A DNA stretch of 26,336 nt from a virus (IMGVR_UViG_2695420403_000013:1-26336); one strand, 5' to 3'; counted from the stretch's first letter, positions 7,849-25,202 are shown. The notes: generated from the sequence alone by a model not told the origin. Numbers and translations: made by a program.

Positions 7849-8360
7849 AGTCCAGCTCCTTTAAGGCACCAGGCCATCTCCCGCGCACGGCGGTTATCCA
7901 GCCCCTGATTAAAAACACCTTTCACATAAACCCAGCGCGGCAACTGTCGGCACGCATCCGCCCAGCGCCGCTGATTGAGCAATTTCACCAGCGTGGAACT
8001 GCAGGCATTGCCCGTTCCCACGTTGAAGGCAAACGACACCGCAGCGTCATACACCTTCTGCGGCGGCTGTTGCTTCACACACCTTTCCAGCGCCCGCTCC
8101 ACACGCAGCACGTTGGAGATCAGCCCTTCCGCTGCCTGTCGTTCCGTAATGGTTTTGCCCGGGATGACGCCCGATGTATTACCAATGCCGTCGGTCCAGA
8201 CACCCGCGCTGCACTGATACGGCTGCAGACGACAGCCTTCGTAATCAGCAATCAGTTTCAGCCCCTCCACGGAGGTGTGAAGCTGCTGAAAACCCGGCAG
8301 CGTGGCAGTAATAGCCAGCACGGTCCCGACAAGGCAGCGTTTAACGATTGATGGATTCAT
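7845..8360 (-). CDS. K: Endolysin (phage lysozyme, gpK-like) with N-terminal signal-anchor
   Basis: 171 aa. Hydrophobic N-terminus VGTVLAITATLPG, then EGLKLIADYEGCRLQPYQCSAGVWTDGIGNT, a lysozyme-like catalytic region. Confidence 0.8.
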   Translation of the reverse strand: MNPSIVKRCLVGTVLAITATLPGFQQLHTSVEGLKLIADYEGCRLQPYQCSAGVWTDGIGNTSGVIPGKTITERQAAEGLISNVLRVERALERCVKQQPPQKVYDAAVSFAFNVGTGNACSSTLVKLLNQRRWADACRQLPRWVYVKGVFNQGLDNRRAREMAWCLKGAGL

Positions 8361-8556
8361 AGTCCTCCCGCGAGATCTGCCCGTCGCGCAGAAGCTGGTA
8401 GGCTTTGTGTTTGTAGTACCAGTTGATAGCCAGCATCAGCACACCAATCATCAGGCCGCCCAGCGTTGAGGCATCCTTGATGGACAAATCGCCCAGCCAG
8501 GCCAGCACGACGGCGATGCAATACGTGATAAAGGCGCTGATTCGCTCAAGCGTCAT
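8341..8556 (-). CDS. Y: Holin (gpY position)
   Basis: 71 aa, two hydrophobic helices and a charged C-terminus, directly upstream of the endolysin. Confidence 0.65.
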   Translation of the reverse strand: MTLERISAFITYCIAVVLAWLGDLSIKDASTLGGLMIGVLMLAINWYYKHKAYQLLRDGQISREDYESINR

Positions 8557-8559
8557 AAT

Positions 8560-8763
8560 TCAGTCCCATAGCTGGACGGTCTGCACGGTGGTGGTTGTCG
8601 GTATGTCCGGCAGCTCCACCTGCAACCCGTGAGGTAAAAAAGGGCCGTATTCGGCAAGCCCCGGATTTGCCTTCAGTACCTGCTCCGTGACACCCTGCGT
8701 GCGCCCGTAATGACGCCAGCAAAGCGCGTCCACCGTGTCATACTGATGCGCACGCACTTTCAT
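8560..8763 (-). CDS. X: Tail protein X-like
   Basis: 67 aa, same length and position as P2 gpX. Confidence 0.7.
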   Translation of the reverse strand: MKVRAHQYDTVDALCWRHYGRTQGVTEQVLKANPGLAEYGPFLPHGLQVELPDIPTTTTVQTVQLWD

Positions 8764-9227
8764 CAGATAAGCTCCACTGTGCAGTGCGGCGCATCCTGCA
8801 CCCGGCTGATGGCCCAGCGGGCGTCACGCCACAAATCACCGCTTGCTTCCGCCAGTTCCTCGCCCCGCTTCACACCGGATGCCGTGGCGTCATAGTCCTG
8901 ATAACGCTCGTTGAGCATGGCGCGTGCCCAGCAGTAAACCGCGTTGAAATAGTGATGAATGCGCTCACTTTTGCCGTCCAGCTGTTCCGCCGGAACCTCA
9001 GCCAGCGACACATACCCCAGCATCTGCTGACGTCTGCGAAACTCATACAGCTCTGCGTTGACCTCCGAAATTGCCGACAGCGCAACCTGCTTTAAACGCG
9101 GCTGCGTCACCGTGCCGTCAGTGCGCATGACACAGCGAAACTCCGACAGGTCCACATCAGGCCAGAACGGCGTGTTTCTGATGATTTCCGCCTGTTCCGG
9201 TGCCTGTTCTGGCGCAACAAACTTCAT
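8763..9227 (-). CDS. L: Head completion/stabilisation protein, gpL-like
   Basis: Start moved to ATG 9225-9227 (MKFVAPEQ...), preceded by AGGAG. The listed ORF start at 9290 is an extension. Confidence 0.8.
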   Translation of the reverse strand: MKFVAPEQAPEQAEIIRNTPFWPDVDLSEFRCVMRTDGTVTQPRLKQVALSAISEVNAELYEFRRRQQMLGYVSLAEVPAEQLDGKSERIHHYFNAVYCWARAMLNERYQDYDATASGVKRGEELAEASGDLWRDARWAISRVQDAPHCTVELI

Positions 9228-12027: not shown

Positions 12028-13794
12028 ATGAACACCACACTGACACCCGCAGATCTCGATCCCCGTCGGCAGGCCATGCTGCTGTACTTTCAGGGATACC
12101 GCGTAGCCCGCATTGCTGAAATGCTGGGCGAGAAAGTTGCAACCGTTCACAGCTGGAAAAAACGCGACAAGTGGGGTGACTATGGGCCGCTGGATCAGAT
12201 GCAGCTCACCACCGCCGCACGCTACTGCCAGCTCATTATGAAGGAGCACAAAGAAGGGAAAGATTTCAAAGAGATTGACCTGCTGGCGCGCCAGTCTGAG
12301 CGCCACGCGCGGATCGGCAAGTTTAACAATGGCGGCAACGAAGCCGACTTAAACCCTAACGTCGCCAACCGCAACAAAGGCCCGCGCCGTCAGCCTGAAA
12401 AGAATGTTTTCACCGATGAACAGATTGAGAAGCTGGAAGAAATTTTCCATTCCTCCATGTTCAACTACCAGCGCCACTGGTGGGAAGCCGGAAAAACCAA
12501 CCGCATCCGCAACCTGCTAAAGTCACGCCAGATCGGCGCGACCTTCTATTTTGCCCGTGAAGCCCTGATTGACGCCCTGCTTACCGGACGTAACCAGATT
12601 TTCCTTTCTGCCAGTAAGGCACAGGCTCACGTCTTTAAGCAGTACATCATCGATTTCGCCAAAGAAGTCGAGGTGGAGCTGAAAGGTGATCCGATGGTGC
12701 TTCCTAACGGGGCCACGCTTTACTTCCTCGGCACCAATGCCCGCACGGCCCAGAGTTACCACGGCAACCTGTATCTGGATGAATATTTCTGGATACCGAA
12801 ATTCCAGGAGCTGCGCAAAGTGGCTTCCGGTATGGCTATTCACAAAAAATGGCGACAGACCTATTTTTCCACACCATCCAGTCTGACACACAGTGCTTAT
12901 CCGTTCTGGTCCGGTGCGCTGTTCAACCGAGGGCGCAACAAAGCCGATAAGGTGGACATCGACCTGTCCCACAGCAATCTGGCCCCCGGCCTGCTGTGCG
13001 CAGACGGGCAGTACCGCCAGATAGTCACCGTGGAAGATGCGGTGCGGGGCGGCTGTAACCTGTTCGACCTCGACCAGTTGCGCATGGAGTACAGCCCGGA
13101 CGAATACCAGAACCTGCTGATGTGTGAGTTTGTGGACGATCTCGCGTCCGTGTTCCCGCTCAGCGAGCTGCAAGCGTGCATGGTGGACAGTTGGGAAGTC
13201 TGGACCGACTTTCATGCACTGGCCCTGCGCCCGTTTGGCTGGCGCGAAGTGTGGATCGGTTATGACCCGGCAAAAGGTACGCAGAACGGCGACAGTGCCG
13301 GATGCGTGGTGGTGGCACCGCCAGCCGTGCCGGGTGGTAAGTTCCGCATTCTTGAGCGTCACCAGTGGCGCGGGATGGACTTCCGCGCCCAGGCTGACGC
13401 CATCAAAAAACTGACCGAGCAGTACAACGTGACCTACATCGGCATCGACTCGACAGGTGTCGGCCACGGGGTTTACGAGAACGTGAAAGCGTTTTTTCCA
13501 GCCGTCCGGGAGTTTGTCTACAACCCCAACGTTAAAAACGCCCTGGTACTCAAGGCCTACGACATTATCAGCCACCGCCGTCTGGAGTTTGACGCCGGAC
13601 ACACCGACATTGCGCAGTCATTCATGGCAATCCGTCGCGCAACCACCGCCAGCGGCAACCGCCCGACCTATGAAGCCAGCCGCAGCGAAGAAGCCAGCCA
13701 CGCCGATCTGGCCTGGGCAACGATGCACGCATTGTTTAACGAACCGCTGCAGGGCGAATCCGCCAATACCAGCAATATTGTGGAGATTTTTTGA
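12028..13794 (+). CDS. P: Terminase large (ATPase) subunit, gpP-like
   Basis: 588 aa, divergent from the O-N-M-L operon. Stop overlaps the Q start. Confidence 0.9.
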   Translation: MNTTLTPADLDPRRQAMLLYFQGYRVARIAEMLGEKVATVHSWKKRDKWGDYGPLDQMQLTTAARYCQLIMKEHKEGKDFKEIDLLARQSERHARIGKFNNGGNEADLNPNVANRNKGPRRQPEKNVFTDEQIEKLEEIFHSSMFNYQRHWWEAGKTNRIRNLLKSRQIGATFYFAREALIDALLTGRNQIFLSASKAQAHVFKQYIIDFAKEVEVELKGDPMVLPNGATLYFLGTNARTAQSYHGNLYLDEYFWIPKFQELRKVASGMAIHKKWRQTYFSTPSSLTHSAYPFWSGALFNRGRNKADKVDIDLSHSNLAPGLLCADGQYRQIVTVEDAVRGGCNLFDLDQLRMEYSPDEYQNLLMCEFVDDLASVFPLSELQACMVDSWEVWTDFHALALRPFGWREVWIGYDPAKGTQNGDSAGCVVVAPPAVPGGKFRILERHQWRGMDFRAQADAIKKLTEQYNVTYIGIDSTGVGHGVYENVKAFFPAVREFVYNPNVKNALVLKAYDIISHRRLEFDAGHTDIAQSFMAIRRATTASGNRPTYEASRSEEASHADLAWATMHALFNEPLQGESANTSNIVEIF

Positions 13795-14822
13795 TGGGAA
13801 AGAGTAAGAAGAACCGCGCTGCGGCGACGAAACAGATCCAGCTTAAAAGCCAGACTACAGCCGAAGCATTCAGCTTCGGCGATCCCGTTCCTGTTCTGGA
13901 CCGCCGAGAACTGCTGGACTATGTGGAATGCGTACAGATGGACCGCTGGTATGAGCCGCCCGTCAGCTTTGACGGACTGGCACGAACCTTCCGCGCCGCC
14001 GTGCATCACAGCTCACCAATTGCGGTGAAATGCAACATTCTGACCAGTACCTACATCCCTCACCCGCTGCTCAGCCAGCAGGCTTTTTCACGTTTTGTGC
14101 AGGACTATCTGGTATTTGGTAACGCCTACCTGGAGAAACGCACGAACCGCTTCGGTGAAGTTATCGCCCTTGAACCGGCCCTGGCAAAATACACCCGACG
14201 CGGGTTAGACCTGGATACCTACTGGTTTGTGCAATACGGTATGACAACACAGCCGTATCAGTTCACGAAAGGCAGCATCTTTCATCTGATGGAACCGGAC
14301 ATCAACCAGGAGATCTACGGCCTGCCCGGCTATCTTTCTGCCATTCCGTCAGCCCTGCTCAATGAGTCCGCCACGCTGTTCCGCCGCAAGTATTACATCA
14401 ACGGCAGCCATGCAGGCTTCATCATGTATATGACCGACGCCGCACAAAACCAAGAGGATGTGAACAACCTCCGCAATGCAATGAAAAGCGCCAAAGGACC
14501 AGGTAACTTCCGCAATCTGTTTATGTACTCGCCTAACGGCAAAAAGGACGGACTTCAGATTATCCCGTTATCAGAAGTCGCGGCGAAGGATGAGTTTCTG
14601 AACATCAAGAACGTGAGCCGGGATGACATGATGGCAGCGCACCGCGTGCCGCCGCAAATGATGGGGATTATGCCGAATAATGTTGGGGGGTTTGGGGATA
14701 TAGAGAAAGCCAGTTGCGTTTTTGTGCGAAATGAGTTAATTCCTTTACAAAAAAGACTTGTAGAAGTTAATATTTGGCTAAAGAAAAAAATAATAGCCTT
14801 CAAAGATTATTCATTGAATTAG
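13791..14822 (+). CDS. Q: Portal protein, gpQ-like
   Basis: 343 aa. The last ~35 codons switch to AT-rich sequence, suggesting a chimeric 3' end at the junction with cargo DNA. Confidence 0.85.
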   Translation: MMGKSKKNRAAATKQIQLKSQTTAEAFSFGDPVPVLDRRELLDYVECVQMDRWYEPPVSFDGLARTFRAAVHHSSPIAVKCNILTSTYIPHPLLSQQAFSRFVQDYLVFGNAYLEKRTNRFGEVIALEPALAKYTRRGLDLDTYWFVQYGMTTQPYQFTKGSIFHLMEPDINQEIYGLPGYLSAIPSALLNESATLFRRKYYINGSHAGFIMYMTDAAQNQEDVNNLRNAMKSAKGPGNFRNLFMYSPNGKKDGLQIIPLSEVAAKDEFLNIKNVSRDDMMAAHRVPPQMMGIMPNNVGGFGDIEKASCVFVRNELIPLQKRLVEVNIWLKKKIIAFKDYSLN

Positions 14823-14860: not shown

Positions 14861-16543
14861 TTACAAATACCGTCTAACACGTATTTTATTAATCTTCGAC
14901 TCATTTCCAATTCTTATCAAAGCATTTCTCGCTTTTTCTCCGATGCGTTTCATTCTATCTGAACCATTGCTATACCCACCAAACTTAAGAGCAGTGGCTA
15001 TTATTGAATCACCACCTTCAAGAATGACTTTTTTAAATAAATCATAGTAGTCATCCTCTGAGGCAGCATCCAATATTTCCTCGTGCCTATCAGACCAACC
15101 ATTCTGACTTGATAATTTTATTAGAACATCCTTTATAGAACCATCCAGATTTAAAGTAATAGAATAATCTTGGATTTTTGACTTTAACTCAGCATCTTTT
15201 ATAGGATGAACATTCATGTAAATAGATTGGACATATTCCTTAAGAGCATCATTGCCGTAATTAATAAATTTACTTATTAATTCACTTGCTTTAATATTTT
15301 CATCTAAATCTCTATACAGTCCGACAACACTATCCAAGTCACTTGGAGTTACATACTCTATCCCACCAACCACCGCTTGATATAGATTATCAACGACCTG
15401 ATTTCGGTTATCTTCAAATGAATTATAGAAAAGCTTCCATGCTTCAAACAGTGAACCTCGCTTACTATCACGGATAAGTTCATCATTTCTTAGACTTACT
15501 TGCCTTTGAAAATTGTTCATATCAATATATCCATGCTTAACCATGTCTATAAGGACTTCATCAAGTTCGTTTGTTTTTTTATAACCATATATAAGCAAAG
15601 TATTAAGCCATTTTTTTCCTTTTCCATCCTCTTTTTCATCACGCACATAGATATTTCTCATATTTCTAATATACTCCAATGATGGTACATCTCCATCTGG
15701 AGTAAATGCGTAATGACTCCAACAATACAAAGTTAAGGAGCGTGCGACTTCATTTGCAATTTTATCAAAATTAATGTTAATAGCAGGTAACAAGGCTAGC
15801 AAAAACCGCTCTATTTTTTTCAGTATCCGAATATTTTTAATACCTAGAGAAATGGAGTATTTGCTTAATAATTTATGAACATCAGAATTATTTTTATATG
15901 CTATAGCTGCACATTCTTCTGGCGTAGGGTTATAGGTAATCTCTCTATCAATAACCTTTTCTTTATAAGTGGAGTAATCATCCATACCACTTGTCCCATT
16001 ATTAAGTAAAAGAACCACCTTACAATTTTTTTGTTCTTTCAATAAAGAAACCAACCCTAAGACATCTTTCACTTCTAAATTTTTACCACGTCTTTCTAAG
16101 TCATCTATGACTACAATAACATTAGTAATTGACATAAATGACATTGACTCAAGTGTCGTAGCGAAATTTTTCACAACAGGTGTTTCTTTTAACAAACGAG
16201 CGGTCTTTCTAGTGCAGGATTCAAGAAGTCCCTTTGTATTTTGGGTTGCTGTTTTTAAATTAGGTTTATTTCCAATAAAATCTTTTGTAATTGTATTTTC
16301 AAAGATGGAATATTTTAATGCGTCCAATGAATTAACACCAAAAAGAGAGACGTAACTATATCTATTAAATGCAATCTTATTCTTATTTTCCTTTAAGAAA
16401 GTATTCCAAGTATAGGTTTTCCCAATCCCCCATTCACCCTGAATAGCCATTACCTCAGGTTCTGCAGATGAAATAAAGTCTGACAACTGTTCTTTAATAT
16501 AGTCCAATGACATGCACATTCTCCGAGATAGATAGTCATCCAT
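14861..16543 (-). CDS. Cargo gene: KAP-family P-loop NTPase (PifA-like), candidate anti-phage/exclusion protein
   Basis: Walker A QGEWGIGKT (Trp-containing G-x-W-G-x-G-K-T typical of KAP NTPases) and Walker B VVIDDLERR. AT-rich. Probable true start is ATG 16511-16513 (GGAG ribosome-binding site), downstream of a TATAAT at 16544-16549. Confidence 0.6.
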   Translation of the reverse strand: MDDYLSRRMCMSLDYIKEQLSDFISSAEPEVMAIQGEWGIGKTYTWNTFLKENKNKIAFNRYSYVSLFGVNSLDALKYSIFENTITKDFIGNKPNLKTATQNTKGLLESCTRKTARLLKETPVVKNFATTLESMSFMSITNVIVVIDDLERRGKNLEVKDVLGLVSLLKEQKNCKVVLLLNNGTSGMDDYSTYKEKVIDREITYNPTPEECAAIAYKNNSDVHKLLSKYSISLGIKNIRILKKIERFLLALLPAININFDKIANEVARSLTLYCWSHYAFTPDGDVPSLEYIRNMRNIYVRDEKEDGKGKKWLNTLLIYGYKKTNELDEVLIDMVKHGYIDMNNFQRQVSLRNDELIRDSKRGSLFEAWKLFYNSFEDNRNQVVDNLYQAVVGGIEYVTPSDLDSVVGLYRDLDENIKASELISKFINYGNDALKEYVQSIYMNVHPIKDAELKSKIQDYSITLNLDGSIKDVLIKLSSQNGWSDRHEEILDAASEDDYYDLFKKVILEGGDSIIATALKFGGYSNGSDRMKRIGEKARNALIRIGNESKINKIRVRRYL

Positions 16544-16580
16544 ATTATAACCCGAGTACTATCAAAGTAATAAGCGCGCG

Positions 16581-16599
16581 CTCGTATCCCCGCCACGCC
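16581..16599 (-). other. Candidate cos (cohesive-end) site
   Basis: The - strand reads GGCGTGGCGGGGAtacgag; the first 13 nt match the P2/186 cohesive-end sequence as I recall it (GGCG(A/T)GGCGGGGAAAGCA). Orientation relative to Q is as in P2. Confidence 0.45.
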
Positions 16600-16640
16600 T
16601 GCCCGCTTTATGTAGTGGTTTTCATGCAGGTGCATGATCT

Positions 16641-16668
16641 ACGCAAAAGCCCGCCAGTTCTGGCGGGC
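16641..16668 (-). terminator. Rho-independent terminator acting on the - strand
   Basis: GCCCGCCAG-ttc-TGGCGGGC; on the - strand it is followed by TTTTGCGT. Confidence 0.5.
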
Positions 16669-16941
16669 CTTAGCAAAAACGATCCTCAAACGATCATGCA
16701 ATCTCATGCAGCATAGACATGCACAGACGAGTAAAGCGAATCGGACTTTACGCAAGGTGAACTCCTCAGCGGGCATAATCAGTATGTCGGAAGATCTCTA
16801 AAAATGAATAATTCGGTTAACAGGTATGCTTACAAAAGCATATATTTGATTAAAAATCATGTAAGGGGGAGGATCTCAAACTGAATCGCCACGGGTTTTA
16901 CAAATTTCGATAGTCTCTCTAACGTTTCGGCTGAGGTCAAA

Positions 16942-17367
16942 ATGAAAAGCTTTTACGTATTAATTTTAATTCTGGTTGCAAGCTTTGTTAGCGTCCCAGT
17001 TCAGGCGGTAACAGCTAAAAACTATGAGAAAGGAACTAAAGCTCAACAGAAATCAATATCTTACCTTTCATGTGCATTCTATGGCAGTAGCACACAATTA
17101 GATCCTAGCTACACGGAGCAAGTACCTACAGCCGATATCAAGATATTACAGAAAGCAGCTTACCACGCTTACAACGATGCGCTCTCATACTTTGGCTATG
17201 AGGAACCAGATCACGAACAACGCATAATTGATTATGCTGAATTTGTGGCGTCGCAAGAAGCTGTGTTATGGGATAAGCCGGGAATGAATGGAAAGCAGGT
17301 AACACTAATTGCTCGTTCTCTCTACAATGAGAGTAACTGTAACTTGTTACTGGACTCAATTAAGTAG
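16942..17367 (+). CDS. Cargo gene: small secreted/periplasmic protein, unknown function
   Basis: 141 aa. Signal peptide MKSFYVLILILVASFVSVPVQA, GAGG ribosome-binding site, AT-rich. Confidence 0.6.
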   Translation: MKSFYVLILILVASFVSVPVQAVTAKNYEKGTKAQQKSISYLSCAFYGSSTQLDPSYTEQVPTADIKILQKAAYHAYNDALSYFGYEEPDHEQRIIDYAEFVASQEAVLWDKPGMNGKQVTLIARSLYNESNCNLLLDSIK

Positions 17368-17526
17368 GAAAAAGATGGTATTTTGCCCGTAGTTTCAACC
17401 TTAATCTCCGAACCTGTCGCAGAACGGGCGTTCACTCATCAAATAAACGCCACACCTAACGCCTCACTGTACTCGTTGTTCAACCTTGCTGACGCCAGAA
17501 CCAAGTTCAGACGCCAGCAACTTTTC

Positions 17527-17760
17527 TTAATGCAGCCAGCTGTCGTCTTCCCACACCTTCTGCATAATCTTCATCACTTGTTTTCTTTCTTCGTCCAGTT
17601 GCAGTCCGGTCAGTTCCACACCGTTAGAGCTACCTTTGCGGATGCGAATTACCGTTTTGGGATACAGGGGGCGCAGATTGCGGTAAAGCTCGGATTCAAG
17701 GGCGTCCAGGGTAGACTGGCTAATCTTCTGCTCTTTATCGATCATTATTTCAATGCGCAT
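17527..17760 (-). CDS. DinI-like protein (second gene of the Tum-like operon)
   Basis: Start at ATG 17758-17760 after GGTGA. MRIEIMIDKEQKIS...LDALESELYRNL...KIMQKVWEDDSWLH resembles DinI (MRIEV...). Confidence 0.65.
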   Translation of the reverse strand: MRIEIMIDKEQKISQSTLDALESELYRNLRPLYPKTVIRIRKGSSNGVELTGLQLDEERKQVMKIMQKVWEDDSWLH

Positions 17761-17770
17761 AAAGGTCACC

Positions 17771-17959
17771 TCAGCTGATGACATCCATTGAGCGGTTGTA
17801 TTCGTGGGTTCTGATTTTTGCCATGAGTTCATCTGTCAGTTCAGAAACCCACTGCAAAGCCAGCCCCTTCTCTTCATCACTACACTCACTAGCCGCTACA
17901 AGCTTAAGAAAAAAATCAATGCGCTGGAGCTTCAAAGACTCCAAAAAATAGTCCTGCAT
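17771..17959 (-). CDS. Small protein (62 aa), first gene of the LexA-controlled operon; possible antirepressor (Tum N-terminal-like)
   Basis: ATG 17957-17959 preceded by AGGAGG. The longer listed ORF (start 18061) would run through the LexA box and is rejected. Confidence 0.4.
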   Translation of the reverse strand: MQDYFLESLKLQRIDFFLKLVAASECSDEEKGLALQWVSELTDELMAKIRTHEYNRSMDVIS

Positions 17960-18002
17960 CTTTCCTCCTATGACACCACAAGCAATACTGTATACATAAC
18001 CA

Positions 18003-18018
18003 CTGTTTATATTTACAG
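18003..18018 (-). promoter_or_regulatory. LexA operator (SOS box)
   Basis: CTGTttatatttACAG, a perfect CTGT-N8-ACAG with AT-rich spacer, about 40 bp upstream of the 17959 start. A half-site CTGT sits at 17988-17991. Confidence 0.6.
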
Positions 18019-18112
18019 TATATAATAATCTTACTGATGTAAAACGTTTTTTTACGTTCATTAGCCTGATATGCCTGGTATTATTAAGAGCACGAATTGT
18101 TAACCCGCGTAA

Positions 18113-20527
18113 TTAATACAGGTTTCGCCACTTATCATCTTCCTGCAAACGCTGGTTCCGATAGAAGATACGCAGGCCTGCTCCTGACGGAATACTGCCG
18201 CCGCGAAGGAGTAAATCGACCTCTTTCTCGCTGCCATTAAATCCTCTGGACTTCAGTTCATAGACGAGCTGCTGTCGCTGATGGTCTGTAATTCGCTGTT
18301 TGTAGTCTTTACGCCGTTTCGGTTTCACCAGGCGTAACCTTGCAGCCAGTTCCCGGCGCTCTTTTTTGCTCATACTGTGCAGGTAATCGTGCAACTCCTT
18401 GTCATCCATGCGGGTAATGTCCGTCCTAGTATCCCCATCAGCTGATTTGTCTTTCCCTTGTTGGTTCAAATTTTCAGCAAGGGGACAGTTATTGCCACGA
18501 GTCCAAGGGGCGCAAGCGCCCTGGTCGGCTGCCGCCTCCTGAACGTCAACGGCTTTACGAACCATTTTCCACTTCACTGCATGAGTGCAGATCTTGCCCT
18601 CTGCAATGGGTGACCAGATGCCATAAATACGAATACCGTGATCGCCATAGGCGGTCGGCTCTTCATTGATTTCATAAGCGGTTCTGATCAAGTGATATTT
18701 GCGAGGAACCAGCACGCCGCCCTGCCTCATAATGTAGGTGGCAAAACAGCCAGCATCAGCAGCAGCCAGGATGGCATCAAGGCGCGGGTTATCCAGTACC
18801 GGCGCACCTGCTTTTTTGTCACCCTGCTGCCTTGCCGCCTGACCAGCCAACAACCGCAGTTCACGGTAAGCCTGACGCCCTGGAATACCAAAGAAGCGGA
18901 ATTGCTGAACACGATGCAGAGACGCCCAGGCATTAACGTATTCAGCGTTATCACGCAGGGATTTACCCGTTTCCTTGCTGATCTCGCCAGCCAGACCACG
19001 CCCGTCAATGTTCTTACTGATGTATTTCGCGATGTAGCTTGTTGGCGTACCTTTGCGCGGGTTAATCAACTCAGACTTAAAGCGTGGTCCTGTGTTATTA
19101 CCCAGCTCCTCGCGGTCTTCACGAATGGCAAACTTACGCAACAAAGCAGTAATGGCGCGGCGATCTTTTTTGCGCATAAAACACAACAGGTGCCAGTGAA
19201 CTGTACCGTCATGATGCGGCTCAGCCACCCGCACGCCATACCAGCGCAATCCGGCTTTGTGCATCGCCTTACGAAATGCAGCAAACATGCCGACCAGATA
19301 ATCACTGCTTTGTCTTACCGTCGCATTTGTCCAGGTCGGGTTGGGCCTGCCGTTATTTAGCGTGGAATGGAAACGTGACGGACAGGTGATGGTGTAGAAA
19401 ACGGCGCAGTCACCGCGCATTTCCGCGATAAGCTCCAGACCTTTAACACATGCCATCATCTCATTGCGGCGATGCGCCGGGTTGCTACTACTGGCGTTTA
19501 CCACATCTTCCATATCCAGCGTGTCGCCGTCTTCGTTCACCAGTTCATGAGAACGGAAAAACTCCAGCGACTTACGGCGCTGCTCACGTTTATGCATCAC
19601 GGCTTCATAGCTGACATAGGGAGATGCTTTTTTGCTGACCAGGCAGACAGCACGCAACTGCTCTTCCCGCCATTCACAACGCATCTTCCACAATTTCCGA
19701 TACCACCAGTCGGCGCACAACATACGCGCCAGCGAACCCGGAATGAGTTCATAGGGCACGGGTTTACGGCGGTTTCTTTTCCGGCGGAGTTGCTCAAACG
19801 CAGGCGGTATGACATCCAGTCGCAGGGTTTCTGCTGCCACCTTTTCCCATGTCTTGCGGATTTCTTCTGGCTTAACATCATCGGTGGCATACAAATCACC
19901 ACAAGCGGCATCAAGACACATACTCATATGCGCAGCGACAAGAGTAGACAGGCGTTTCACCTGATCCTGACTCATTTCAGGCAAGATCAGCAGGCCGTCC
20001 AGCCCTTCATGGCTTGCCATAAAGCGAAAAGAAGTGGATAGCTGACTGTCGCGTACATGCTCCAGTCGTTCCAGACATGGCTTAATCGTCTCACGCAAAT
20101 AGCGGGAATAAGCCTTTGGCCTGCCCAGGCTGCTGAAGTATTCAATACGTTGCATCAGCGGCTTGCTGATATGGGAAGGCTGGGCGTTAACGTCCGCCAG
20201 TATGACCATGTCCGGATTAAAACGCTGCTGCTCATGCGCCAGCTTTGCCCGGCTAATGAGCTTATCCTGCTCCATTTCGCGCTGGACAGGATCACGTGAT
20301 TCATTAAAAAAATAACGCTCCCAGACCTGATCACTCAGTGCCTCGCGGCGCAACTGTTCCTGCTCGTTATCGGCAGCGTACAGAGTGATCTGGTTTGAAA
20401 GCGCAGAAACCGGCGCAACTTCCGCCGGGTCCAGATAAGGGTTAATGGCCTTTTTCGGACTGTTCCATGAGAACGCTGCGGCAGCCTCGTTAAAGCCGCA
20501 GCAGTTGCTCATATCGGCATGGCTCAT
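18113..20527 (-). CDS. A: Replication initiation protein (gpA-like rolling-circle endonuclease)
   Basis: 804 aa, size and position as P2/186 A. ATG overlaps the Dam stop (ATGA). Confidence 0.85.
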
Positions 20528-23270: not shown

Positions 23271-24215
23271 ATGTCAACTCAAAAATTCACATTTCGCCAT
23301 ATGAATGACGATATGAAAGCCGTTGTCATACAGAATCGCGGTGGTCAGAAAGTAATTGAGCGGATACTCATGGCTTATGGCTTCAAGTCACGCCAGGCAT
23401 TCTGTAACCATCTAGGTATTTCCCAAAGCACGATGGCTAACAGATATGCCCGCGATACATTTCCTGCAGATTGGGTAGTTATCTGCTCAATGGAAACAGG
23501 AGCATCAATTAAATGGCTAGCATTTGGTTCAGATGATGACGAGCAAATGCCATCCCCTTCACCAGAACAACATGTTGAAACACACTCCGAAGATGGTTCT
23601 TATCATGATGTTCACTATAAACAACAAAAGTTCGACAATGAAAACTCCGTTGATTTTTCTCGAGGTGGCAAGGAAGCAATAGAACGAATTGTTAAGGCTT
23701 ACGGTTATAAGACGCGCCAAGCCTTAGCTGATCACTTAGGTATTTCAAAAAGCACATTAGCCACAAGATATATGCGTGATGTCTTTCCTTCAGACTGGAT
23801 AATTAAGTGCGCTCTAGAAACGGGTACTTCACTAACGTGGCTAACTACTGGTAAAGGCCCAAAGTTTGACGATGCAAGAAATGATGTAATTGCTATTACA
23901 CGCAAAAAAATCACTGATGGGAATCTATTTGAGTCAGATTTCTATATGCTTGATAAAGCATTAATACCAGACTCAATCCAATTACCACTGATTGTCAGTA
24001 CCCCAAAAAAAACATACCTATGTGATCAGTCATTTGATGAAATTACAGATGGTAAATGGATTGTTGAAATAGAAGGAAAAGTGAGCATTCGAACCCTAAC
24101 TAGGATACCTGTAGGAAGATTAAAAATCTCAGACAATTATTTATCGTTTGAATGTAATATTTCAGACATTGATGTTATTGCTAAATGCAAATTTTTGCTT
24201 ATAGAAGAATTATAA
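23271..24215 (+). CDS. cI: CI-type immunity repressor with a tandemly duplicated N-terminal HTH domain
   Basis: 314 aa. Two ~70-aa repeats (IERILMAYGFKSRQAFCNHLGISQSTMANRY...METGASIKWL and IERIVKAYGYKTRQALADHLGISKSTLATRY...LETGTSLTWL), each resembling the 186 CI N-domain, plus a CI-like C-terminal domain. Confidence 0.7.
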   Translation: MSTQKFTFRHMNDDMKAVVIQNRGGQKVIERILMAYGFKSRQAFCNHLGISQSTMANRYARDTFPADWVVICSMETGASIKWLAFGSDDDEQMPSPSPEQHVETHSEDGSYHDVHYKQQKFDNENSVDFSRGGKEAIERIVKAYGYKTRQALADHLGISKSTLATRYMRDVFPSDWIIKCALETGTSLTWLTTGKGPKFDDARNDVIAITRKKITDGNLFESDFYMLDKALIPDSIQLPLIVSTPKKTYLCDQSFDEITDGKWIVEIEGKVSIRTLTRIPVGRLKISDNYLSFECNISDIDVIAKCKFLLIEEL

Positions 24216-24227
24216 GAGGATATTGGA

Positions 24228-25202
24228 ATGGCCGGTTCCAATTGGAAAGATAATAGTGAAGAATATATCTCTAGAATCATTAAACTAGAGGAATTAAAAT
24301 CATATTTATCCGATAGTGTCTATAATGATTTGAAAAAACTATTGAATTCTTTAAAGTTTAATGAATTCGATGTGCTTTTTGATGTTTACAGTAAATATTT
24401 TTCTAAAAAATATAATTGTGAGCACATTAACCCCGAACGCACATCCTTAAAAAATAGTGAGATAGATGATTACATTTCAAAAATCACTAAATTAGAGCAT
24501 AAAGTGCGTGAATTGCAAAAAATCCATAACTCTCATTCAGAGCAAATGGAAAAGTTGAATGAAAAATTATTAAATGAAATGGAAAGTAAAAAAAAACTAG
24601 CATCACAGCTAGATTTCCAACACGCCAAAAACAATGAGCTAAAGCTTCAAAACCAAGAACTTTCAAGCAAAATCCAACAAAATAAAATTGACGAAAAAGT
24701 TCCTAAATATGTGCAGGGCGTCAAAGAAAAACTACAGCAGGATGATAAAGATTTCACTGCAATGTCTTACAATTGGGCGATAGCCGGAATACTATTTTCA
24801 TTATTATCTATAAGTGCCGCCTTTTTAACATTTTTTTATAAAATAGATATAAAAGATACTACCCCCATTGAACTTTTTTATTATTTCACTAGGGGCTTGC
24901 TTGGGGTTGCATTACTTTCTTGGCTTTCTTATTTTTGTTTAAACAATTCAAAAAAATACACACATGAAGCAATCATAAGAAAAGACAGACAACATGCTCT
25001 AATGTTTGGTGAAGTCTTCTTACAAATTTATGGTTCAACTGCGACAAAACAAGATGCTATTGATGTGTTTAAAGATTGGAACATGTCTGCTAATTCTGCA
25101 TTCGCAGATAAAATGCAGCCACCTCCAAATTTATTTAACATTCTAGGTACACTTGTAGATAAAAAATCAGCAGCAAATGATGACAGCATTACCAAAAAGT
25201 GA
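24228..25202 (+). CDS. Cargo gene in the lysogenic operon: coiled-coil plus two-TM membrane protein, unknown function
   Basis: 324 aa, AT-rich. Starts 13 nt after the cI stop with an AGAGGA ribosome-binding site. N-terminal ~170 aa heptad-rich and charged; helices WAIAGILFSLLSISAAFLTFFY and LLGVALLSWLSYFCL. Confidence 0.6.
   Translation: MAGSNWKDNSEEYISRIIKLEELKSYLSDSVYNDLKKLLNSLKFNEFDVLFDVYSKYFSKKYNCEHINPERTSLKNSEIDDYISKITKLEHKVRELQKIHNSHSEQMEKLNEKLLNEMESKKKLASQLDFQHAKNNELKLQNQELSSKIQQNKIDEKVPKYVQGVKEKLQQDDKDFTAMSYNWAIAGILFSLLSISAAFLTFFYKIDIKDTTPIELFYYFTRGLLGVALLSWLSYFCLNNSKKYTHEAIIRKDRQHALMFGEVFLQIYGSTATKQDAIDVFKDWNMSANSAFADKMQPPPNLFNILGTLVDKKSAANDDSITKK

Follow-up and report, generated by a model that had tools for sequence, protein, structure and literature searches.

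Most cataloged defense genes of prophage hotspots act in the cytoplasm; stoppers of infection or of toxins that act in the periplasm are few and are hard to recognize by sequence. The Spackle protein (Sp) of phage T4, an inhibitor of the tail lysozyme gp5, is a periplasmic protein of superinfection exclusion. Phage 186 carries orf97, the annotation of which states that "expression from plasmid blocks 186 infection." In P2, the region between gpA and gpQ is a defense hotspot, and more than one-third of the cloned systems were anti-phage (Rousset et al. 2022, PMC9122126). The integrase-side region is a minor P2 defense hotspot (PMC13586616).

The gene described here encodes a moron product, predicted to be exported, in the P2 cos hotspot, which is a known kind of gene, and it has already been cataloged: its product falls into PHROG 7437, is identical to the RefSeq hypothetical protein WP_000834899 from E. 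coli prophages, and has 32 entries in Table S5A of Rousset et al. 2022 (PMC9122126); at least two of these entries label it "hypothetical" and place it beside HIRAN and DUF262/DUF1524 cargos. The WP_000834899 sequence was not found in a part of Table S5B, the system table of the same study. Literature searches on the accession, on prophage periplasmic exclusion, and on orphan immunity returned no characterization of this open reading frame (ORF). A sequence-only reading of the DNA had suggested that the gene encodes a lysogenic-conversion factor or a periplasmic inhibitor; both are reasonable hypotheses, drawn from location and architecture.

Prophage setting and placement of cos

The window, by which we mean the whole 26,336-nucleotide stretch of DNA that was analyzed, is a P2/186-like (Peduoviridae) E. 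coli prophage whose orientation is reversed with respect to the P2 map. Chromosomes of many E. coli isolates match the 901 bp surrounding the ORF at 100% identity. The terminase gene (positions 12028 to 13794, + strand) and the portal gene (13791 to 14822, +) are followed by an AT-rich KAP-NTPase-like gene on the other strand (14861 to 16543, −), which matches PF07693 (E value of 2e-9), PADLOC family PDC-S49 (8e-25), and phrog_4740. This gene for a KAP-family P-loop NTPase-like protein has a GC content of 33% and is an insert that separates the portal stop codon from cos, whereas in P2 and 186 the distance from cos to the portal gene is within ~190 bp.

A search with the P2 cos sequence GGCGAGGCGGGGAAAGCAC, allowing up to 3 mismatches, gave no match, and cos was then placed by way of the 186 ends. 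The cohesive-end sequence GGCGTGGCGGGGATACGAG lies at 16580 to 16598 on the − strand. The annotated cos of 186 is 19 nt long, and the window cos is identical to it over the first 12 nt, which are the 186 cohesive end GGCGTGGCGGGGAAAGCAT. The right end of phage 186 aligns from position 16599 on, directly past the window cos.

Beyond the ORF (16942 to 17367, +) lies a DinI-like gene that also resembles the C-terminal part of Tum (17527 to 17832, −; the RefSeq call is shorter, at 17527 to 17760). Its product matches PF06183 (E value of 1.3e-22), shares 41% identity with the C-terminal part of 186 Tum, and is labeled a DinI-like family protein in RefSeq. It forms an operon with a phrog_698 gene (17771 to 18061, −), and upstream of this operon is a perfect LexA box, CTGTTTATATTTACAG, at 18003 to 18018, the sole zero-mismatch occurrence of CTGT-N8-ACAG in the window. 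The position of the box matches that of the p95/LexA site of 186, where the same p95-LexA-tum layout is found. Replication gene A (18113 to 20527, −) comes next and is followed by the Dam, CII, CI, and integrase genes. The ORF is thus situated between cos and a Tum-like operon and is convergent with that SOS-controlled operon, as the sequence-only reading had stated; its further assignment of the gene to the accessory region equivalent to P2 tin/old is confirmed by the position between gpA and cos, inside the published hotspot (PMC9122126).

Two observations concern the integrase side of the window. The CI repressor ORF (23271 to 24215, +; 314 aa) contains two tandem Phage_CI_repr helix-turn-helix copies, at residues ~22 to 86 and ~132 to 196, which are clearly alike, with one Phage_CI_C domain after them. 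In a related prophage (L001), the annotated CI gene is 570 bp long (~190 aa), and the window CI ORF may represent a duplication of the DNA-binding domain or a fusion. Between CI and the integrase gene, positions 24228 to 25202 (+) encode a 324-aa protein with no Pfam match and with marginal PADLOC matches (E values of ~0.005).

An optional cassette in the P2 cos hotspot

When the window was placed in a three-way alignment with two other prophages, one that has an empty site (L039) and one that carries a DUF4145 gene (L040), the comparison delimited a conserved cos block of ~155 bp (16570 to 16724), which begins ~10 nt from the cohesive-end sequence, is common to P2/186-like prophages, and has variable cargo on both sides. 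In L039 the cos block abuts the DinI end; homology to this prophage ends at ~16724 and restarts at ~17454, and therefore the ORF, with 217 bp upstream and 86 bp downstream, constitutes an optional 729-bp cassette, or moron (16725 to 17453, +), with a GC content of 40.9%, that is absent in empty-site prophages. Among complete E. coli genomes, the cos block was present in 1278, the empty junction in 328, and the ORF in 101. When locus content was compared across related prophages, which the sequence-only reading had proposed as a check, the DinI-side slot was found to hold the ORF, a DUF4145 gene resembling the validated single-gene defense PD-T7-4 (E value of 1.6e-5), or nothing. In the portal-side slot, the window carries the KAP/PDC-S49 gene, L039 the gene for an AbiU-like AIPR protein, L040 PDC-S59, and L001 the gene for a 208-aa protein. 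At the P2 cos hotspot, the ~155-bp cos block is flanked by two cargo slots that are independent of each other. Across 30 IMG/VR contigs, the gap between the ORF and the DinI-like gene is a constant 166 nt and the distance from the portal gene to the ORF ranges from 965 to 3416 bp, which argues that the ORF is independent of the large portal-side cargo.

In one IMG/VR contig (L018; 2751185916_000004, positions 8001 to 8891), the block from the ORF to DinI is 100% identical to that of the window in a divergent backbone (portal, terminase, and A are 74%, 88%, and 89% identical, respectively), which points to a recent recombinational exchange of the ORF-DinI block. In a lambdoid relative (L034), nucleotide similarity is limited to the ORF, ~30 nt upstream, and ~50 nt downstream, so that the mobile unit is essentially the gene itself. 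The locus is a self-contained accessory (moron) cassette in a variable slot that extends from cos to the SOS-controlled DinI/Tum-like operon; like hotspot cargo, it is found between gpA and gpQ, by cos, with conserved flanks and variable content.

A candidate sigma-70 promoter, TTAACA-18-TATATT, is predicted inside the cassette at 16817 to 16846 (+) and agrees with the consensus at 10 of 12 positions. It is kept (as TATGTT) in the cassette of the 91% identical orthologue (L032) and is missing in the lambdoid L034, and promoter-like sites in the region are no more numerous than in shuffled sequences. Between the convergent genes, in the conserved flank and outside the cassette, lies a hairpin (17486 to 17520, within a feature that extends to 17528), and CTTTTCTT comes after it on the + strand. 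Folding of the − strand gives a near-perfect 15-bp stem, and the + strand version is bulged (z = −0.95). The hairpin may possibly serve the convergent genes as a shared terminator; a search for intrinsic terminators inside the cassette found none, leaving this flank hairpin as the only candidate.

Translation and export signals

The ORF, from its ATG to its TAG stop codon, specifies 141 aa; a Shine-Dalgarno sequence, GAGG, can be read directly from the sequence at 16933 to 16936 (+), 5 nt upstream of the ATG. The ORF has a GC content of 40.4%; that of the terminase and portal genes together is 54.3%, and that of gene A is 52.6%. The N terminus of the product, MKSFYVLILILVASFVSVPVQA followed by VTAK, shows the classical Sec n/h/c layout in a rule-based check that considered n-region charge, an h-region of ~10 to 15 residues, small residues at −3 and −1, and the lack of a lipobox and of a twin-Arg motif. 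The n-region holds one Lys (K2), the hydrophobic core runs from F4 to V19 (mean Kyte-Doolittle value of 3.26 for the best 10-aa window), the −3/−1 site is V-Q-A, and neither a lipobox Cys nor a twin-Arg is present. By these rules, cleavage is predicted between VQA and VT, after residue 22 (Ala22); positions 16942 to 17007 (+) would then encode the signal peptide (residues 1 to 22) and positions 17008 to 17367 (+) the mature domain with the stop codon. This domain, of 119 aa, is predicted to be periplasmic and is modeled as a five-helix bundle. Exactly two cysteines, C44 and C133, are present in the mature part. The earlier description of an AT-rich gene for a Sec-exported 141-aa protein with two mature cysteines therefore holds, with export judged at the sequence level.

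Family, distribution, and selection

The ORF product matches PHROG 7437 over its full length (HMM E value of 4.3e-99; residues 1 to 141 on profile positions 1 to 141 of 141), and this was its only PHROG match. By this profile comparison it is a member of PHROG 7437, a cataloged family of unknown function. The statement of the sequence-only reading that no family was recognized needs amending on this point; it stands for Pfam, with no match for the query at an E value of ≤1 and none consistent for 16 members at ≤5, for NCBIfam, where no family matched, for PADLOC-DB v2 (0 families at ≤1), and for PDB sequences, where the single sequence gave no usable match and the family profile gave 0 matches at ≤10.

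The family is small. A HMMER search of 1.84 billion cluster representatives returned 17 matches at an E value of ≤0.001, 3 of which were spurious repeat proteins, which puts the family at ~14 clusters at 50% identity among 1.84 billion proteins; word-indexed searches agree. Where a source is named, the members come from E. coli, Klebsiella aerogenes, Hafnia alvei, Enterobacter, Salmonella, and Citrobacter. Two peptide patterns searched against GTDB representative genomes, one genome per species, found no relative, a result that reflects the limits of the patterns and not absence. Megablast and tblastn searches of 50,697 phage records gave no match to the ORF; the gene is known only from prophages and phage-plasmids.

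Family members are 125 to 145 aa long. All 16 aligned members, at 24 to 90% identity, have a signal peptide with an equivalent Sec/signal peptidase I site and exactly two cysteines in the mature part. Across the 16-sequence alignment, C44, W110, Y128, N132, and C133 do not vary; in an alignment of 21 sequences, C44 is invariant and C133 nearly so. The most conserved stretch consists of helix 3 and the loop that follows it (IIDYAEFVASQEAVLWDKPGMNG).

Comparison with the orthologues in the P2-like L032 (91% identity) and the lambdoid L034 (77%) gave dN/dS ratios of 0.13 to 0.27 at dS values of 0.3 to 0.45, and the ORF is a real gene under purifying selection. It is intact at ≥99% identity in 101 of 5426 complete E. 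coli genomes, that is, in all carriers, and a few truncated copies of the family exist (P0005 to P0007). The carrier isolates come from humans, cattle, pigs, poultry, dogs, and water, and the carrier list shows no association with a pathotype or host.

Predicted structure

AlphaFold2 modeled the mature domain, using the 21-sequence alignment, as five helices with high confidence (pLDDT of 95.4, pTM of 0.88); an earlier full-length model had a pLDDT of 82.5. In precursor numbering the helices span residues ~25 to 53, 63 to 84, 91 to 110, 120 to 130, and 133 to 140. Cys44 lies in helix 1 and Cys133 opens the last helix, so that in the model the pair appears placed to tie the C terminus to helix 1. 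The invariant residues are C, W, Y, N, and C, and a conserved set of the His/Asp/Ser catalytic type is absent.

Foldseek searches gave nothing significant, with best E values of 0.95 (PDB) and 0.74 (BFVD) for the full-length model and 1.1 (PDB) for the mature-domain model. Ferritin-type and generic four-helix bundles were the top matches and were rejected as nonspecific (E values of ≥0.95 against PDB, TM scores of 0.2 to 0.45, rmsd of 13 to 15 Å). The model thus describes a confidently predicted helical fold that appears to be without known relatives in PDB or BFVD.

Genomic contexts of distant relatives

Some 15 contexts of family members were inspected, and all belonged to temperate phages or phage-plasmids of Enterobacterales. 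SSU5/pHCM2-type IncFIB phage-plasmids of 105 to 230 kb (L004 and L005) carry a 31% identical homologue as a lone gene, opposite in strand to its neighbors and beside a gene for a 560-aa DUF4942/methyltransferase-like protein. An LprI-family lysozyme inhibitor is annotated ~3 to 5 kb from the homologue on these plasmids. In a Citrobacter prophage the homologue is at the prophage end, beside T5orf172, UmuDC, and DinI genes; in several prophages an integrase or recombinase gene lies immediately or a short way upstream of it. One context is a ParA/ParG-bearing element, and in another the homologue occupies the early region, beside genes for a methyltransferase and an HNH protein.

In four contexts (L041, 7267 to 9635; L049, 4852 to 8917; L052, 5166 to 7584; and L053, 6113 to 7179), the homologue sits within runs of genes for small exported proteins and lipoproteins. 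The genes of these runs, which include one for a small membrane protein, are arranged back to back and are often found just past an integrase or recombinase. The neighboring small exported proteins and lipoproteins have no match in Pfam, PHROG, or NCBIfam. Two of the neighbor families share with the ORF family the same two-Cys layout and a C-terminal NC.LL motif. The secreted neighbors in L041, L049, and L052 were considered as paralogues; hhalign probabilities were only 10 to 55% and arose from the signal peptide or an 18-residue tail, and homology of these neighbors to the ORF family is accordingly not established. A lipoprotein with four cysteines (containing SGCSSDPTSMWNSRYNFKSVGQVMEMCN) recurs in L047, L051, and L053, and a more divergent lipoprotein occupies the equivalent place in L048.

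Possible roles of the gene product

Relatives of the gene are found at prophage ends, beside integrases, or alone on the opposite strand in phage-plasmids, which are typical positions of lysogen-expressed genes. We infer expression in the lysogen, formation of a disulfide, action by binding, and an anti-phage role. The gene would be transcribed alone, opposite to its neighbors, probably from a promoter in the AT-rich cassette. Its product would be exported by Sec and cleaved after Ala22, and DsbA would then oxidize it, linking the C-terminal helix with helix 1 through a single Cys44-Cys133 disulfide. Because the fold is predicted to be a small helical bundle and the conserved residues do not form a catalytic-type set, the 13-kDa soluble periplasmic protein would act by binding rather than by catalysis. 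The most conserved surface comprises helix 3 with its loop and the C-terminal Y-x3-N-C motif. The product may target either an envelope component or a foreign protein on its way into the cell, and by binding this target it would protect the lysogen.

The single most likely role, which we put forward tentatively, may be superinfection exclusion by a block of a periplasmic step of infection, such as cell wall penetration or genome entry. This role is favored because of the location of the gene and the analogy with T4 Spackle. The defense genes or defense candidates in the neighboring slots (PDC-S49, PDC-S59, the AbiU-like gene, and the PD-T7-4-like DUF4145 gene) also count for an anti-phage role, as does 186 orf97, with its infection-blocking annotation and its place in the same slot. 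Several considerations count against exclusion. The most conserved motif is near identical across relatives of 25 to 40% identity, and the E. coli copies are ≥99% identical, which fits a conserved target and not an arms race with variable phage proteins; the arrays with small secreted proteins and lipoproteins fit immunity arrays or envelope remodeling equally well; the sequence searches revealed no homology to any known exclusion protein; and the candidate promoter matches a consensus to which the region shows no surplus of matches. A broader proposal, about which we are doubtful, is that PHROG 7437 and its relatives form a new class of single-gene prophage defense acting in the periplasm, in which a disulfide-locked protein of a previously unseen helical fold blocks a conserved step of infection or a cell wall toxin. 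The gene would be carried as a ~500-bp cassette swapped among P2-like phages, lambdoid phages, and SSU5-like phage-plasmids and would in some prophages be one unit of integrase-side "envelope-guard" arrays.

The main rival to superinfection exclusion, in itself rather unlikely, is that the protein is an orphan immunity protein or inhibitor directed at externally delivered cell wall toxins (for example, amidase or muramidase effectors of type VI systems, lysozyme-like bacteriocins, or the lysozyme of animals); it would bind and neutralize the toxin in the periplasm, and the prophage would spread immunity among Enterobacterales. The predicted combination of small size, solubility, a signal peptide, and a single disulfide is typical of periplasmic immunity proteins, the arrays of L041, L049, L052, and L053 resemble recombinase-associated orphan-immunity arrays, and both the strongly conserved motif, which fits a conserved enzyme target, and the annotated LprI-family inhibitor near the homologue on SSU5-like plasmids are in keeping with such a function. 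However, in the ~15 contexts, a limited sample, no toxin, VgrG, PAAR, or bacteriocin gene adjoins a homologue, none of the 16 members matches a Pfam immunity or lysozyme-inhibitor family at an E value of ≤5, and no solved immunity protein was significant in either Foldseek search of PDB (all E values of ≥0.95). We consider improbable a lysogenic-conversion factor for fitness or virulence that, like Bor, SodC, or periplasmic chaperones, acts against an animal host or envelope stress. It would suit such a factor that an AT-rich moron in the accessory region of a prophage encodes a predicted exported protein and that the carriers come from humans, livestock (cattle, pigs, and poultry), dogs, and water, but those carriers reveal no pathotype or host link, the protein has no similarity to a known virulence or stress family, and the locus and its alternative cargos are of the defense type rather than the virulence type.

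It is very unlikely that the protein serves the phage itself in the periplasm during lytic growth, for example as a lysis-timing regulator or an antiholin-like factor. Such a function would be consistent with the operons that contain the homologue in L041, L048, L049, and L052, in which small phage genes all run in one direction and stop codons overlap with start codons, and with the ORF's convergence with the SOS operon, always at 166 nt, in P2-like phages. Yet the gene is dispensable, since 328 genomes have an empty cos-DinI junction and others have an unrelated gene there; no context links it to lysis genes, and it is absent from the 50,697 sequenced phage records searched. The small size and patchy distribution of the family and the few truncated copies (P0005 to P0007) could indicate a decaying, nonfunctional ORF that hitchhikes in a recombination hotspot. 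To this we give almost no credence in view of the dN/dS values of 0.13 to 0.27, the 101 intact copies at ≥99% identity, the retention of length, signal peptide, and Cys pair down to 24% identity, and the very confident AlphaFold model.

Regarded as a candidate envelope-protection gene, which is a reasonable view, the ORF offers a clean test case: it is one small gene in a defined cassette, and prophages that otherwise match supply natural empty and filled alleles. The hosts of the family, E. coli, Klebsiella, Enterobacter, Salmonella, and Citrobacter, are common in the clinic. An active protein would extend the few known exclusion and immunity mechanisms at the envelope level by a new fold and a new target, and its activity would further show that two independent cargo slots exist at the cos hotspot of P2-like phages. 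A protein without activity against phages and toxins would be one more uncharacterized moron.

Comparison with known systems

The closest relationship is to PHROG 7437, of which the ORF product is a full-length member; functional information does not come with this family. Ferritin-like bundles share with the model long antiparallel helices and a short C-terminal helix, but their metal-site residues are not conserved in the ORF family, and the resemblance is no evidence of a relationship. With T4 Spackle the likeness is one of functional analogy only. Both are small, phage-encoded proteins with a Sec signal peptide and two cysteines in the mature part, whereas Spackle has 97 aa and comes from a virulent phage and the ORF product has 141 aa and comes from a prophage; hhalign gave a probability of 5.3%, from the signal peptide only, and the Spackle structure was absent among the 50 best PDB matches in either Foldseek search. 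The orf97 gene of phage 186 shares the slot of the ORF, between tum and cos. It differs in that it encodes 243 aa, lies on the tum strand, is unrelated in sequence (no tblastn match of the ORF to L003), and has no PADLOC match.

The cargo of the hotspot described by Rousset et al. 2022 resembles the ORF cassette in location, conserved flanks, variable or empty content, AT richness, and defense-type neighbors. In contrast to that cargo, the ORF encodes just one small protein, predicted to be exported, that lacks nuclease, ATPase, and other effector domains and has no PADLOC match, and it occupies the DinI-side slot of cos, while the large systems occupy the separate portal-side slot.
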